A DNA stretch of 64,000 bases, from contig JAHFSX010000033.1 of NCBI GenBank assembly GCA_023269675.1, forward strand, positions 3,841 through 67,840, given 5' to 3'. Within the stretch, counting starts at the first letter, position 1. Every line of letters starts with the position of its first letter. The translations under genes and the position numbers were made by a program. The notes below the pieces were generated by a model. The model was not told the origin of the DNA and ran no database searches. It saw nothing but the letters and a program-made list of their open reading frames with translations. Positions 13,226 to 62,175 of the stretch are shown in pieces. Source of the stretch: Verrucomicrobiota bacterium (GTDB lineage: Bacteria > Verrucomicrobiota > Kiritimatiellia > RFP12 > UBA1067).

Positions 13226-13347
13226 ACGTGAACTCCCCCGGTGGGACGGACGCTTCCGCGCCGCCAAACAGCCTTCAAAAATCGATTTTTCATTTTGCCA
13301 CGTTATCCTGCCCCGGTCGATACCAAAGGAGGAACAATCTCGAGGGC

Positions 13348-13626
13348 GGGGTGATTCAACTTTGTTTGAATCCACACCCGAAGGAGGCGTTAGAATTTCG
13401 GAGTTGGGAGTTGCAATACCATGAAAGTGAACGTGTTCGCGCGATGCGCGCGAGGCCGTGTTTGTGATTTCAAAATGAAGTCACACGTGGGGCTCCAAAA
13501 TACGGTTCCTCGCGGAAAGGCTCATCCTTGTCAAACGCCTCTTTTCACGGCCTTTTTGCGCTACCAACGCCTAACTCCTAAATTATCCTTGGTGCGCCTC
13601 AGTTTCAACGAAACTGAATCGCACCC
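13348..13626. mobile_element. Non-autonomous ~280-bp MITE-like element, copy 1
   Basis: Imperfect terminal inverted repeats GGGGTGATTCA...TGAATCGCACCC; direct repeat CTCGAGGGC at 13339-13347 and 13627-13635; homologous to 28207-28492. Confidence 0.8.
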
Positions 13627-13666
13627 CTCGAGGGCGCGCCGATGCCGCTCGCCACGGGAGCCCGAC

Positions 13667-25606: not shown

Positions 25607-26098
25607 CTACGTCCGCTTGATCTCTTTGTTCAGCCGGTCGAGCACGCCGTTCACGAAACGGCCCGCATCGGCGTTACTGAAATACTTGGCGAGGTCGATC
25701 GCCTCGTTCAACACCACCGCCGGCGGCACATCGGTGCAGTAAATCATTTCAAAGAACGCCAGCCGCAAGACGTTACGCTCCACCGATCCCATGCGGTGCA
25801 ACGGCCAGTTCTGCGTGTAGGACTGCACCTTCGCGTCCAGTTCCGGCAAGTGCCCGAGCACCCCCCGCACCAGCTTCTCGGTGAAAATCCGGATCTTCGG
25901 AGGCGCCACGCGGTCTTCCACCGACTTGGCCTCATCCGACACGACCGCCGTATCCTTGGCCTCCGCATCCTCCATCTGGCAGGTCCACTGCTGACGCCAG
26001 AACTTCGGGATGGCCATATCGATGTCCAACCCGGGATTCAGGTCCGCCTGAAACAGCATTTGCAGCGCCCATTCGCGCCCTTGTCTGCGAGTCGCCAT
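25607..26098 (-). CDS. nusB: Transcription antitermination factor NusB
   Basis: RRQGREWALQMLFQ, ERNVLRLA, NEAIDLAK, FVNGVLD. Confidence 0.95.
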   Translation of the reverse strand: MATRRQGREWALQMLFQADLNPGLDIDMAIPKFWRQQWTCQMEDAEAKDTAVVSDEAKSVEDRVAPPKIRIFTEKLVRGVLGHLPELDAKVQSYTQNWPLHRMGSVERNVLRLAFFEMIYCTDVPPAVVLNEAIDLAKYFSNADAGRFVNGVLDRLNKEIKRT

Positions 26099-26219
26099 GC
26101 TTCGTATTCCTTCTTTGAACAAAACCTCATATGGGAAAGCCGGAATCCAGGTTTCGGCGGAATGCCGACGGTGACTTGCACCCGACTGACCTCTGGAGTC
26201 CGTCCTCTCCGGCGACCGC

Positions 26220-26681
26220 TCAGATCGCCTTGAGCACAGCGACCGTTTCGATCGCGGACATCACCGCGTCCCAGCCCTTGTTGCCCTGCTTGGTGCCCGC
26301 GCGTTCGATCGCCTGCTCCAGATTCTGCGCGCAAACAATGCCGTTCAAGACCGGCACCTGCGTGTCCAGCGCGATCTTCGACAACGCCCGCGCCACCGTC
26401 CCGTTGATCAGGTCGGCATGCGGGGTCGCGCCCTGGATCACCGCGCCCAACGCCACCACGGCATCGACCTTGCCCGAGGCCGCCAGCTTCTGCGCAACCT
26501 GCGGAATCTCATTCGCGCCCGGCACACGCACCAGCGTCAGGTCGCCATCCTTGCCGCCGTGCCGCACAAAACAGTCCGCCGCGCCCTTCACCAACTGCTC
26601 GGTGAAGAAACTGTTGAAGCGGCTCACCACGATGGCCATCTTCATCCCCGTCGCATCCAGATTTCCAGCGATCTCTTTCAT
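26220..26681 (-). CDS. ribH: 6,7-dimethyl-8-ribityllumazine synthase
   Basis: VSRFN, VPGANEIP, IQGATPH, GNKGWDA. Confidence 0.96.
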   Translation of the reverse strand: MKEIAGNLDATGMKMAIVVSRFNSFFTEQLVKGAADCFVRHGGKDGDLTLVRVPGANEIPQVAQKLAASGKVDAVVALGAVIQGATPHADLINGTVARALSKIALDTQVPVLNGIVCAQNLEQAIERAGTKQGNKGWDAVMSAIETVAVLKAI

Positions 26682-26735
26682 CTCATGTCTCCTCTCGCTT
26701 ATGCCGAATCCTATTTCCCGACTTCCTACTTCCAC

Positions 26736-27944
26736 TTAAATCAAATGACCCATCTTGGTCTTCTTGGTCTCCAGGTAGCGGCGGTTGAAATCGCCCGGCT
26801 CAAACATGACCGGCACGCGCTCGACGATTTCCAAGCCGTACCCTTGCAGGCCGACCAGCTTCTTGGGGTTGTTCGTCATCAGCCGGATGCGCTTAAGTCC
26901 GATATCCGCGAGAATCTGCGCACCCACGCCGTAATCGCGCATGTCCGCCGGGAAGCCCAGCTTGATGTTGGCCTCGACGGTGTCCAGGCCGCCCTCCTGC
27001 AATTTGTAGGCGTGCAGCTTGTTGGCGAGGCCGATGCCGCGCCCCTCCTGACGCATATAGAGGATCACGCCGCACCCCTCCTTCTCCACCATGCGCATGG
27101 CCGCGTGCAGCTGGTTGCCGCAGTCGCAGCGCGCCGAGCCGAACACGTCGCCCGTGAGGCATTCGCTGTGGACGCGCACCAAAGGCGCCGGACACTCGGT
27201 CACGTTGCCTTTGATCAGCGCCAGATGGTCCATGCCGTCGGGGGACGACGTGTAGAGCCGCAATTTGAAATGCCCGTACGAGGTCGGCAGCTCAACCTCC
27301 TCGATGAAGTCGATCAGCCGTTCGCGCCGCCGCCGGTATTGGATCAGGTCGGCGATCGACAGCATCTTGAGGCCGTGTTGCGTGGCGAAGGCCCGCAGGT
27401 CAGGCAGCCGCGCCATCGTGCCGTCCGCCAGCATGATCTCGCAGATCACGCCCGCCGGCTTGAGCGCCGCCAGCTTGGCGAGATCCACCGCCGCCTCGGT
27501 ATGGCCGGCGCGCACCAGCACCCCGCCCTCGCGCGCCTCCAGCGGGAAGATGTGCCCAGGGCTCACGACAGAGTGGGGTCCCGAAGCCTCGTCGATCAGC
27601 ACCTGCACCGTGTGCGCGCGGTCGGCCGCGCTGATGCCGGTGCTCACGCCCTCGGCCGCGTCCACCGAATGGGTGAAGGCCGTCGCGAACTTGTCGCCGC
27701 GGTTGCGGCTCGGGGCGCGCTCCACGCCGACCTGCCGCAGACGCGCACCCGTCATCGGCACGCAGACCAGCCCGCGCGCGTTCATGACCATGAAGTTGAT
27801 CGCCTCGGGGGTCACCTTCTCCGCCGCGATGATCAGATCACCCTCGTTCTCGCGGCTCTCGTCATCCGCGACGATCACCATCTGCCCCTGCCGGAACGCC
27901 TCCACGCACGTTTCCACGGGATCGAACACCGATTCAGTTTCCAT
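26736..27944 (-). CDS. ribBA: Bifunctional DHBP synthase / GTP cyclohydrolase II
   Basis: DDESRENEGD, RAGHTEA, RVHSECLTGD...RCDCG, QEGRGIGL. Confidence 0.97.
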   Translation of the reverse strand: METESVFDPVETCVEAFRQGQMVIVADDESRENEGDLIIAAEKVTPEAINFMVMNARGLVCVPMTGARLRQVGVERAPSRNRGDKFATAFTHSVDAAEGVSTGISAADRAHTVQVLIDEASGPHSVVSPGHIFPLEAREGGVLVRAGHTEAAVDLAKLAALKPAGVICEIMLADGTMARLPDLRAFATQHGLKMLSIADLIQYRRRRERLIDFIEEVELPTSYGHFKLRLYTSSPDGMDHLALIKGNVTECPAPLVRVHSECLTGDVFGSARCDCGNQLHAAMRMVEKEGCGVILYMRQEGRGIGLANKLHAYKLQEGGLDTVEANIKLGFPADMRDYGVGAQILADIGLKRIRLMTNNPKKLVGLQGYGLEIVERVPVMFEPGDFNRRYLETKKTKMGHLI

Positions 27945-27955
27945 ACCTGTTCCCC

Positions 27956-27988
27956 AAAACAAAAACCCCGGCCAAAGCGGAGCCGGGG
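27956..27988 (-). terminator. Intrinsic terminator (riboswitch expression platform)
   Basis: Minus strand CCCCGGC-TCCGCTTTG-GCCGGGG followed by TTTTTGTTTT, between the aptamer and ribBA. Confidence 0.85.
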
Positions 27989-28007
27989 CAATGCAAAACA
28001 CGCAACC

Positions 28008-28148
28008 GCATCTTCTAACATCCAGACTGTACTGTCGGCCACGGAATCGAACCGTGTCAGTGGCAGGCAGGAACAGCTTGCCAGTCGCGGGCTTTACCGC
28101 CGGTCAGGAATTTCCCGCTCGCGCAGGATCACCTTGCCCCGAAGACGC
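28008..28148 (-). ncRNA. FMN riboswitch (RFN element)
   Basis: Minus strand GUCUUCGGGGCAAGGUGA...AAUUCCUGACCGGCGGUAAAGCCCGCGA...CUGACACGGUUCGAUUCCGUGGCCGACAGUACAGUCUGGAUG..AGAAGAU matches the RFN consensus; upstream of the rib operon. Confidence 0.95.
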
Positions 28149-28161
28149 ATGAATGAGAGAC

Positions 28162-28190
28162 AGTTTAGTGCTTTCTGACCGGATTGGCAA
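28162..28190 (-). promoter_or_regulatory. Sigma70-type promoter of the rib operon
   Basis: Minus strand TTGCCA (28190-28185), 17-bp spacer, TAAACT (28167-28162), ~14 nt upstream of the riboswitch P1. Confidence 0.7.
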
Positions 28191-28206
28191 GCCGCCATCC
28201 GGCACG

Positions 28207-28492
28207 GGGTGCGATTCAACTTTGTTGAATCCGCACCCGAAGGAGGAGTTAGGATTTAGGAGTTAGGAGTTGCAATGCCCTGAAAGTGAACGCGCTCGCG
28301 CGATGCACAAGAGTCCGTGTTCGTGTCTTCAAAATGAAGTCACGCGCATGGCTCCAAGAAACGGTTCTTCGCGGAGGGGTTCCTCCTAGTCTTACGCCCG
28401 GTTCTCAAGGTTTTGTGAGCTTCCAACTCCTAAATCCTAACTCCTAAATTCTCCTTGGCGCGACTCAGTTTCACCGAAACTGAATCGCACCC
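28207..28492. mobile_element. Non-autonomous ~280-bp MITE-like element, copy 2
   Basis: Perfect 12-bp TIR GGGTGCGATTCA...TGAATCGCACCC; direct repeat TCCGGCACG at 28198-28206 and 28493-28501. Confidence 0.85.
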
Positions 28493-28600
28493 TCCGGCAC
28501 GGCGAAGCGCAAAATGAAATGCGCCCTTTTGAAAAACGGGGAGTCTGCGGGAGTGCCGCTCGCGCGGACGACCTCAGGCAGGACACGGCAACCGCGTCTT

Positions 28601-61938: not shown

Positions 61939-62036
61939 AAAACACTCTCCTAAGTGAACAGTGACGAGGCCCCGGTCCGTTTCAAGATCGCAGACCTCAC
62001 ATCAGACATGCGTGTTCTAACCTGTAACCTCAAACC

Positions 62037-62122
62037 GATTACGATTTAGAGCACGATTAAGATTATGAGGAACAGGGGACCTTTCGTAATCCTAATCGTA
62101 ATCCTAATCTTAATCTGAATCG
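62037..62122. repeat. Inverted arrays of GATTAN/NTAATC hexamers
   Basis: GATTAC GATTTA GAGCAC GATTAA GATTAT ... GTAATC CTAATC GTAATC CTAATC TTAATC TGAATC. Confidence 0.7.
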
Positions 62123-62175
62123 TTCAAAAAGTTACCCCTCCGTTTGCTCCCGCTCCGCTGGCGTCGGGATTGTCT

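Follow-up and report, generated by a model that had tools for sequence, protein, structure and literature searches.

What kind of entity has ends that fold on themselves, inverted arrays of heptamers and a small hairpin at its centre, and does such a nested architecture speak for a structured RNA or for mobile DNA? This question is raised by a 286-bp element in a genome assembly of a Verrucomicrobiota bacterium (class Kiritimatiellia; GCA_023269675.1). It occupies positions 28207-28492 of a 64,000-nucleotide stretch of contig JAHFSX010000033.1 (hereafter the window), where the same 9-bp direct repeat can be read on either side of it, and it has a sister element within the same window; we refer to the sister as copy 1 and to the element itself as copy 2. 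An initial annotation, made from the sequence alone, had proposed that the pair reflects selection on RNA or single-stranded DNA structure, and that it could be a hybrid of REP/REPIN-like folding with DDE-type transposition, a mobile structured non-coding RNA or a new class of mini-element. Here we argue that the element is a MITE (miniature inverted-repeat transposable element) which is probably moved in trans by a DDE transposase, most likely a Mutator-like enzyme of the ISKra4 group, and that its nested fold is a consequence of the way its DNA ends are designed.

A family of non-coding elements with palindromic ends

In the source genome (6.3 Mb in 85 contigs) the element is present in 49 full-length copies, and 67 nhmmer matches of at least 180 bits, partial ones included, are spread over many of its contigs. 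Copy 2 is 70-93% identical to the other full-length copies, and from this degree of divergence we conclude that the family is old. Both ends of the 49 copies carry GGGTGYGATTCA as terminal inverted repeat. Their 9-bp flanks are identical in 24 of 49 cases and agree at eight positions in a further 8 and at seven positions in 5, compared with an average of 2.8 of 9 for random flank pairs; several of the remaining mismatches are one-nucleotide register errors in the assigned element boundaries. The DDE-type duplications that the initial annotation had read from two copies are in this way borne out across the family.

The copies form subfamilies with differing cores, and their heptamer count varies in 7-nt steps. 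In eight of them, truncated ones included, a second small element has become nested within the left array, and two of the three complete composite copies are flanked by 9-bp repeats (matching at 9/9 and 8/9 positions). This second element also stands alone in the window (62028-62165, minus strand), with inverted hexamer arrays of ATTAAG and ATTACG types and a GC-rich hairpin at one end. A coding core was considered and rejected: of the 49 copies, 41 and 36 respectively keep one of two forward frames open across the core, and 38 keep a candidate ATG, but substitutions per codon phase (0.161/0.126/0.163) have no third-position bias. The element is a MITE, non-autonomous and without coding capacity, and every testable feature that defines such elements was found, the autonomous partner excepted.

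The anatomy of copy 2 is given in Table 1. In its left end, a 14-bp stem interrupted by one bulged C closes a 3-nt loop; in its right end the stem is 16 bp long and the loop again has 3 nt. Because each end is a palindrome, the 12-nt terminal motif is present four times per element. Tandem Repeats Finder placed the left array at 28244-28271 (AGGAGTT x4.0, period 7, 90% matches) and the right array at 28428-28449 (TCCTAAA x3.1, period 7), and the two pair in the predicted fold. Copies 1 and 2, linked by repeat finding at 83-88% identity, differ in alignment by one 7-nt gap in the right heptamer array of copy 1 and by two mutually cancelling 1-nt indels, which accounts for their lengths of 279 and 286 bp. 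The self-folding termini, the inverted heptamer arms and the one-heptamer length difference described in the initial annotation are all upheld by these readings.

Table 1. Coordinates of copy 2, its insertion context and its sister copy (positions in the window)
Feature	Position	Strand	Basis
Left target-site duplication TCCGGCACG	28198..28206		direct reading
Left terminal palindrome (L-type): terminal inverted repeat GGGTGCGATTCAAC as outer arm, TTT as loop, and an inner arm complementary to the outer one but for one bulged C	28207..28238		reading and fold; conserved in other genomes
Left heptamer arm: AAGGAGG followed by TTAGGAG-like units	28239..28271		Tandem Repeats Finder
Variable core: subfamily-specific, without coding signature, partly conserved between species	28272..28424		alignments, codon-phase test
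Central palindrome GTGTCTTCA-AAA-TGAAGTCAC; cross-species consensus GTGTCYTCA-N3-TGARGACAC	28323..28343		reading and alignments
Right heptamer arm: CTCCTAA-like units with CTCCTT at the end, complementary to left arm	28425..28456		Tandem Repeats Finder, predicted pairing
Right terminal palindrome (R-type): outer 12 nt as at left end, symmetric 4-nt insertion in both arms	28457..28492		reading, copies, fold
Right target-site duplication TCCGGCACG	28493..28501		direct reading
Sigma70-type promoter-like site TTGCCA-17-TAAACT, directed away from the left end of the element	28162..28190	-	promoter scan, shuffles, offset analysis
FMN (flavin mononucleotide) riboswitch heading the ribBA-ribH-nusB operon; insertion context, outside the element	28006..28150	-	RF00050, 94.1 bits, E 2.3e-20
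Copy 1, a 279-bp member of the family, between duplications CTCGAGGGC (13339-13347 and 13627-13635)	13348..13626		repeat finding, alignment

Distribution across related genomes

Some part of the element was matched in 17 of 41 related genomes, the source included; the others are 13 of 24 further members of the same family and 3 genomes outside it. These matches are mostly limited to the terminal 66-78 bp, the interior being mostly unconserved. Scanning one genome per species for the left-hairpin pattern returned at least 97 stretches, nearly all from metagenome-assembled genomes (MAGs) labelled Kiritimatiellia or Lentisphaerae, and among the matches listed in that scan 75 hairpins came with enough sequence for statistics. 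In this set the best repeat period downstream of the hairpin is 7 in 51 of the 75 cases, and the type of heptamer is specific to the lineage (AGGAGTT and AGGATTT types, AATCCAG, AGGAGGT and others). One lineage has a right hairpin whose inner stem is wholly different while the outer bases are unchanged, and mini-elements of 96-116 bp consist of hairpin, arrays and hairpin only. Similarity to the interior of the MITE family was detected in 14 elements from other genomes, the best-conserved interior motif between species being the central palindrome (consensus in Table 1).

In one groundwater and one wastewater metagenome, the summed contig depth of the two end modules (28179-28265 and 28440-28526) was about 100 times that of flanking genes, and we therefore take the end module to be highly repeated in those communities.

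Oriented insertion upstream of promoters

Insertion of the element is oriented and promoter-proximal, with the left end next to sigma70-type -35 boxes that are directed outward from it. A TTGACA box (at least 5 of 6 bases) starts exactly 27 positions outward of the left end in 11 of 49 copies, compared with 1 of 49 at the same offset on the right flank. The other 59 left-flank offsets hold between 0 and 3 copies each, 19 in all, and by our own arithmetic about 0.3 would be expected per offset; a further 8 of 49 copies have such a box at offsets 12-17. A -10-like box lies 17 nt beyond the box at offset 27, and of the 14 copies in which four or more of the six TTGACA bases are present at that offset, 12 have a gene transcribed away on the left-end side. 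The flanks of the copies are mutually unrelated (median identity 0.26, maximum 0.54). Other genomes repeat the pattern: of 83 loci, 16 have TTG at offset 27, as against 0-6 at other offsets.

The gene contexts of 67 copies, called with a purpose-made and crude gene caller based on GC3 (GC content at third codon positions), are biased as well: 27 lie between divergent genes, 26 between tandem genes with the left end toward the downstream gene, 9 in the opposite tandem arrangement and 3 between convergent genes, with 2 at contig ends. We attribute this bias in context and orientation to target choice, that is, to oriented insertion by promoters. An internal promoter or terminator was also considered as its source and set aside in favour of target choice, given that neither a promoter nor a consistent terminator was found inside the element across the copies examined.

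Copy 2 illustrates the pattern at the short spacing. The -35 box of the promoter-like site listed in Table 1 starts 16 bp from the left junction, and the promoter scan found one such site here compared with 0.1 expected from shuffles. Judged by its sequence, this promoter would drive the FMN riboswitch together with ribBA, ribH and nusB, which occupy 25607-28001 on the minus strand (Pfam domains DHBP_synthase and GTP_cyclohydro2, DMRL_synthase and NusB). In three genomes of the same genus, homology ends at the insertion point of copy 2 and the neighbouring gene differs, so that none of the three offers a clean empty site. At one same-genus locus (L173, G002:C246), opposite window position 28201, a different small element with inverted ends CAGCAATTCTAAATTTGGC and an 8-bp repeat TGTGCGTC lies upstream of the rib promoter, and genome G001 holds the empty site for that element.

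Candidate transposase

The analysis shows that the family is a MITE, how many copies it has and where it occurs, that 9-bp duplications flank it, that it inserts by promoters in a set orientation and that its palindromic ends are conserved; which transposase family moves it is inferred. According to passages of Guerillot et al. 2014 (PMC3942029), prokaryotic Mutator-like elements generate repeats of 8-9 bp, TnGBS elements insert in a conserved orientation 15-17 bp upstream of sigmaA promoters, and ISLre2 as well as several ISKra4-group elements behave like TnGBS in promoter insertion. As repeat length, orientation and promoter spacing match, the ISKra4 group is the best candidate for the mover of this MITE, and we lean, with modest confidence, towards that family assignment.

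Searches of related genomes agree with this choice. Following up weak matches to the ISLre2 model brought to light insertion sequences whose best-scoring family is ISKra4 (NF033572: 208 bits at locus L220, above the 205-bit cut-off, and 156 bits at L198). These ISKra4-like elements are 1.7-2.0 kb long, their ends begin with GGGCGCAT or GGGTGC, and 9-bp duplications flank 5 of the 9 examined. At offset 27 of one flank, three of 8 carry TTGACG, TTGGAT or TTGAAT, in each case on the side of the 3' end of the transposase gene, and a fourth has TTGAAG at offset 26. Matches to the ISKra4 group occur in 8 of the 13 family genomes with any part of the element, compared with 1 of the 11 without.

On this basis we propose that a non-coding MITE would be mobilised in trans by a DDE transposase making 9-bp staggered cuts, with a prokaryotic Mutator-like enzyme from the ISKra4 group as the likeliest candidate, and that enzymes of this group would insert it just upstream of sigma70-type promoters in a fixed orientation. 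The position of copy 2, 16 bp upstream of the -35 box of the rib operon, would be explained by such fixed, promoter-directed targeting. Each end consists of the terminal repeat plus its own inverted copy, with the inverted, lineage-specific heptamer arrays lengthening the inverted repeat to about 70 bp. The palindromes and arrays would presumably serve transposition, as extra or structured transposase sites, and not an RNA. A new class of mini-element, one of the options raised by the initial annotation, is unneeded for behaviour that fits Mutator-like DDE transposition.

Several observations weigh against this account. No autonomous element with matching ends was found in the source genome or in 80 loci from other species, and a transposase domain was present in none of the 110 open reading frames (ORFs) scanned with Pfam, a subset of 185 ORFs lying within 1.2 kb of a hairpin; clustering of the 185 also returned no recurrent protein, although MAGs are often without assembled insertion sequences. 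The source genome itself contains only an 87-aa open frame with one internal TGA and a weak match to the ISKra4 group (E 4.8e-5). An end match to the ISKra4-like elements was not obtained: across 31 loci, only GGGYGC is common to GGGTGYGATTCA of the element and the GGGCGCAT... or GGGTGCAAC... of the insertion sequences. The co-occurrence of the two among genomes is confounded by relatedness and by incomplete MAGs. The main spacing of 27 bp differs from the published 13-17 bp, a spacing of 12-17 being seen in only 8 of 49 copies, copy 2 included; supplementary tables S1 and S2 of PMC3942029, with their lists of ends, repeats and insertion sites, may bear on this comparison. The gene contexts suffer from the crudeness of the gene caller. 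Finally, the compensatory change in the terminal palindromes (see below) is not obviously predicted by a model of purely double-stranded protein sites, and a role for a folded DNA or RNA strand is possible. As to the choice between DDE and HUH/RAYT enzymes that the initial annotation had left to be made, the data favour DDE through the 9-bp duplications and the oriented insertion by promoters, and the partner with matching ends is the part that was not found.

Other transposases were tried and rejected. For PF01609 (IS4/IS5-type), examined in 5 genomes, the ends are unrelated both in the two insertion sequences that G006 holds in many copies and in the only one of the source genome. PF03400 (IS1) was matched in 0 of 24 family genomes, and a PF00872 (IS256) element of G004, with ends GGGGGGTGTAACC..., gave no convincing match. 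Apparent partners of 704-1700 bp in three loci proved to be chance matches beside housekeeping genes, and four candidate end pairs in G006 enclose no transposase.

Folding, covariation and the case for an RNA

Copy 2 has a predicted folding energy of -135.1 kcal/mol, compared with -83.2 +/- 5.2 for shuffles (z -9.97), and the fold comprises two terminal hairpins, a long stem built from the arrays and a central hairpin. We ascribe this nesting to ends that are palindromic and are then followed by inverted heptamer arrays. An alternative is that the element is a mobile structured RNA or a cis-regulatory RNA module, in which the hairpins, the pairing of GGAG and CTCC arrays and the central hairpin are selected as RNA, and which might stabilise or insulate transcripts or control the translation of neighbouring genes. 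The great stability of the fold (z about -10) is in its favour, as is the Shine-Dalgarno-like AAGGAGG, perfect in sequence, with which the left arm opens and whose complement closes the right arm. We nevertheless regard it as unlikely. The opposite strand folds equally well (-136.4 kcal/mol, z -10.5), there is no promoter or consistent terminator inside the element, and target choice explains the orientation bias. No Rfam family was matched at its gathering score, the best hit at E up to 1 being mir-652 with 19 bits against a threshold of 73 (E 0.19). Contigs from RNA libraries of two studies do carry the left-end module, one of them with the flank of the copy at C18:24969, with DNA carry-over possible.

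Covariation tells a similar story. The initial annotation had described the central hairpin as covarying between the two copies, a claim that fails on inspection: the 3' arm TGAAGTCAC is identical in both, the 5' arms differ (GTGATTTCA in copy 1, GTGTCTTCA in copy 2), the change is one-sided, from T.G to C-G, and copy 2 also has a T/T mismatch where copy 1 has A-T. No two-sided change occurs in 31 source-genome copies of this hairpin, in which one pair is U-A in 16 and U.G in 14. For the source-genome copies, the RNAalifold covariation term is a negligible -0.62 of -28.1 kcal/mol, with any double change in 3 of 50 pairs. The central palindrome is the best-conserved interior motif between species, which would suit an RNA, and 82.5% of its cells are paired across species, with two-sided change in 2 of 9 pairs in one or two sequences each. 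Against an RNA function, it is reverse-complemented in 4 of 14 aligned elements from other genomes (L033, L143, L128 and L113), so that its G.U pairs fall on different strands in different lineages.

A possible sign of selection on structure comes from 21 elements of several species, in which 12 pairs have two-sided changes, compared with 6.3 +/- 1.6 in shuffles (0 of 500 reach 12) and 6-9 in slid controls. This modest excess is located mainly in the terminal palindromes and arrays. At position 6 of the terminal hairpin, among the matches listed from other genomes, the base and its unconstrained partner are C-G in 54 of 75 cases, T-A in 10 and mismatched or wobble-paired in 11. In the source genome the left hairpin has T/A in 34 of 49 copies and the right hairpin C(/G) in 39, and the two ends of a copy differ in 39 of 49, T standing at the left and C at the right. 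Since the arms agree within each end while the ends differ, each palindrome appears to be maintained. Such maintenance could arise from a folded single strand, from two inverted protein sites or from local conversion, and the data do not point to RNA; the 5 of 49 copies with a C/A mismatch in the left hairpin have still multiplied. What remains of the proposed structural selection is the apparent upkeep of the terminal palindromes, with no support for an RNA-level component, and what remains of the covariation is a cross-species excess that the source genome lacks.

Further arguments for an RNA role come from heptamer arrays that stand alone outside the MITE copies. Fifty-four of them, with CTCC in sense, precede predicted starts, in 49 cases by no more than 25 nt; a further 21, with GGAG in sense, lie from -11 to 23 nt after stops. 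Such placing is to some extent inevitable, since every frame of the arrays contains stop codons. A broader view, which we hold to be speculative and rather improbable, is that the hairpin-heptamer module is a portable control cassette set at a constant position upstream of promoters by a Mutator-like transposase throughout Kiritimatiellia, that related stand-alone arrays next to stop and start codons, such as those at the trpB-trpA junction, have been adopted by the host for transcription insulation or translation initiation, and that selection on a folded strand, beyond their use as transposase sites, keeps the ends and arrays.

Less likely alternatives: a composite or REPIN-like origin

A different account of origin holds that the element is a nested composite of small units, namely palindromes of 31-36 bp, every one of which would contain both a left and a right end, together with inverted heptamer-array elements and a core, with the outermost palindromes acting like flanking insertion sequences. 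It is compatible with mobilisation by a DDE transposase as proposed above and differs on where the fourfold motif comes from. In its support, 98 of 190 heptamer arrays lie outside the MITE copies and 16 convergent inverted pairs of arrays have spacers of 11-405 nt (the reversed-motif control gave 20). Further points for it are the short mini-elements made only of hairpins and arrays and the second small element, found nested in the left array of 8 copies and solo at about 62028-62165. Arms that agree within ends and differ between them also fit a palindrome origin of each end. Another MAG contains a solo, perfect 31-bp palindrome (L073:2501-2531) with a 7/8 direct repeat (cGACAATC / aGACAATC), which by its sequence may be a minimal mobile unit. 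It is, however, the one solo palindrome with a convincing direct repeat, a second (L122) having no clear one. Seven of 8 solo ends from the source genome continue in an AAGGAG-like remnant (e.g., GAAGGA) and mostly look truncated, only C24 being without it. The order hairpin-array-core-array-hairpin is kept between lineages despite their differing heptamers, and therefore points to one co-evolving unit. On balance we give a composite origin a low probability.

That REP palindromes form a REPIN-like doublet here, mobilised by a RAYT (HUH/Y1) transposase, is very improbable, and the REP/REPIN-HUH hybrid of the initial annotation is not supported: each end is a palindrome of 32-36 nt and genes with a Y1_Tnp domain occur in 33 of 41 genomes, but 9-bp target duplications surround the whole unit, where a single-strand HUH mechanism would leave none, the hairpin is near none of the 8 Y1 loci examined, Y1 does not track the element (it is present in element-free genomes and was not found in the element-bearing G012, G016 and G023), the source genome has only weak Y1 matches (best E 4.8e-5), and the palindromes are without the GTAG/CGTC tags named in the abstract of PMC3733652. 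As a separate observation, Y1_Tnp open frames of about 350 aa are present in many copies in some genomes (16 matches in G024, 33 in G032 and 22 in G038), which suggests that an HUH-transposase-like family has expanded in this order.

Relation to known elements

Eukaryotic Foldback and Mutator-like elements have long inverted ends made of short tandem subrepeats and 9-bp duplications, are mostly non-coding and have a link to the Mutator superfamily. This likeness, which belongs to another domain of life, is offered here as a lead only and is not a claim of homology. Cyanobacterial STRR repeats provide a parallel for heptamer repeats. More generally, heptameric repeats are described as abundant in bacteria in the abstract of PMC4692102; our arrays resemble such tandem repeats in being intergenic, of period 7 and different between lineages, and differ in their arrangement as inverted pairs, in belonging to the end of a transposon and in lying directly at start and stop codons.

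Bacterial MITEs such as Correia/NEMIS, ERIC and Nezha are described in the review by Delihas 2011 (PMC3184786) as short, multi-copy and intergenic elements without a transposase gene, with terminal inverted repeats, target duplications and, on paper, a long stem-loop, all of which apply here. Unlike these, the present element has palindromic ends that present the motif four times, subterminal heptamer arrays that change with the lineage, and oriented insertion at a fixed distance from -35 boxes. With TnGBS, ISLre2 and ISKra4 Mutator-like elements, as characterised in passages of PMC3942029, it shares repeats of 8-9 bp and oriented insertion upstream of sigmaA-type promoters, and with the ISKra4-family elements of related genomes it shares 9-bp repeats, GGGYGC ends and a TTG-type box at offset 27. 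It differs from Mutator-like elements in having no transposase, in ends that match over the first 6 bases only and in a spacing of mainly 27 bp instead of the 13-17 bp reported in those passages; the ISKra4-like insertion sequences, in turn, have no terminal palindromes or heptamer arrays. REP and REPIN sequences, going by the abstracts of PMC3116915 and PMC3733652 and by passages of PMC3184786, are similar in their short palindromes, inverted pairs and intergenic location. Compared with those accounts, our element has target duplications and neither a linked Y1 gene nor GTAG/CGTC tags, and is much longer, with arrays and a core.

No earlier description of such an element was found in the literature searched, and its combination of self-complementary ends, lineage-specific heptamer arrays and oriented promoter-proximal targeting by a non-coding passenger is unusual. 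Promoter-directed insertion is already described for the conjugative TnGBS and for ISLre2 and ISKra4 elements, whereas here a tiny non-coding passenger appears to use it: a near-consensus -35 box lies at 12-17 or 27 bp from the left end in 19 of the 49 full-length copies, and related copies are present across a little-studied bacterial class. Insertion places a self-pairing, Shine-Dalgarno-rich sequence where upstream promoter elements and regulators act, for example at a riboswitch-controlled vitamin B2 operon, so that regulatory variation could arise naturally from this family. Being compact, it is also a convenient substrate for work on promoter recognition by Mutator-like transposases, and its lineage-specific heptamers and self-complementary ends raise the question of what the transposase or the host recognises.

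Stand-alone heptamer arrays

The 98 arrays that lie outside MITE copies in the source genome (G000) carry no terminal hairpins (e.g., G000:C66:285793-285908, C85:142513-142604 and C39:172861-173094). Typically, a stop codon is directly followed by a TTAGGAG array, and the next start codon is preceded, at a distance of a few bases, by a CTCCTAA array with CTCCTT as its end; one inverted pair, at C10:72082-72546, encloses a small ORF. The junction between trpB and trpA is a good example of their variability. In the source genome it holds an inverted array pair (L225, G000:C66:285300-286400). In the other genomes compared (loci L230 and L232-L236), the two genes overlap in G014 (ATGA), a solo CTCCTAA array abuts the trpA start in G003 and G004, a GC-rich hairpin and a CCCTGAA-type array are found in G002, and about 2.2 kb is inserted in G008.

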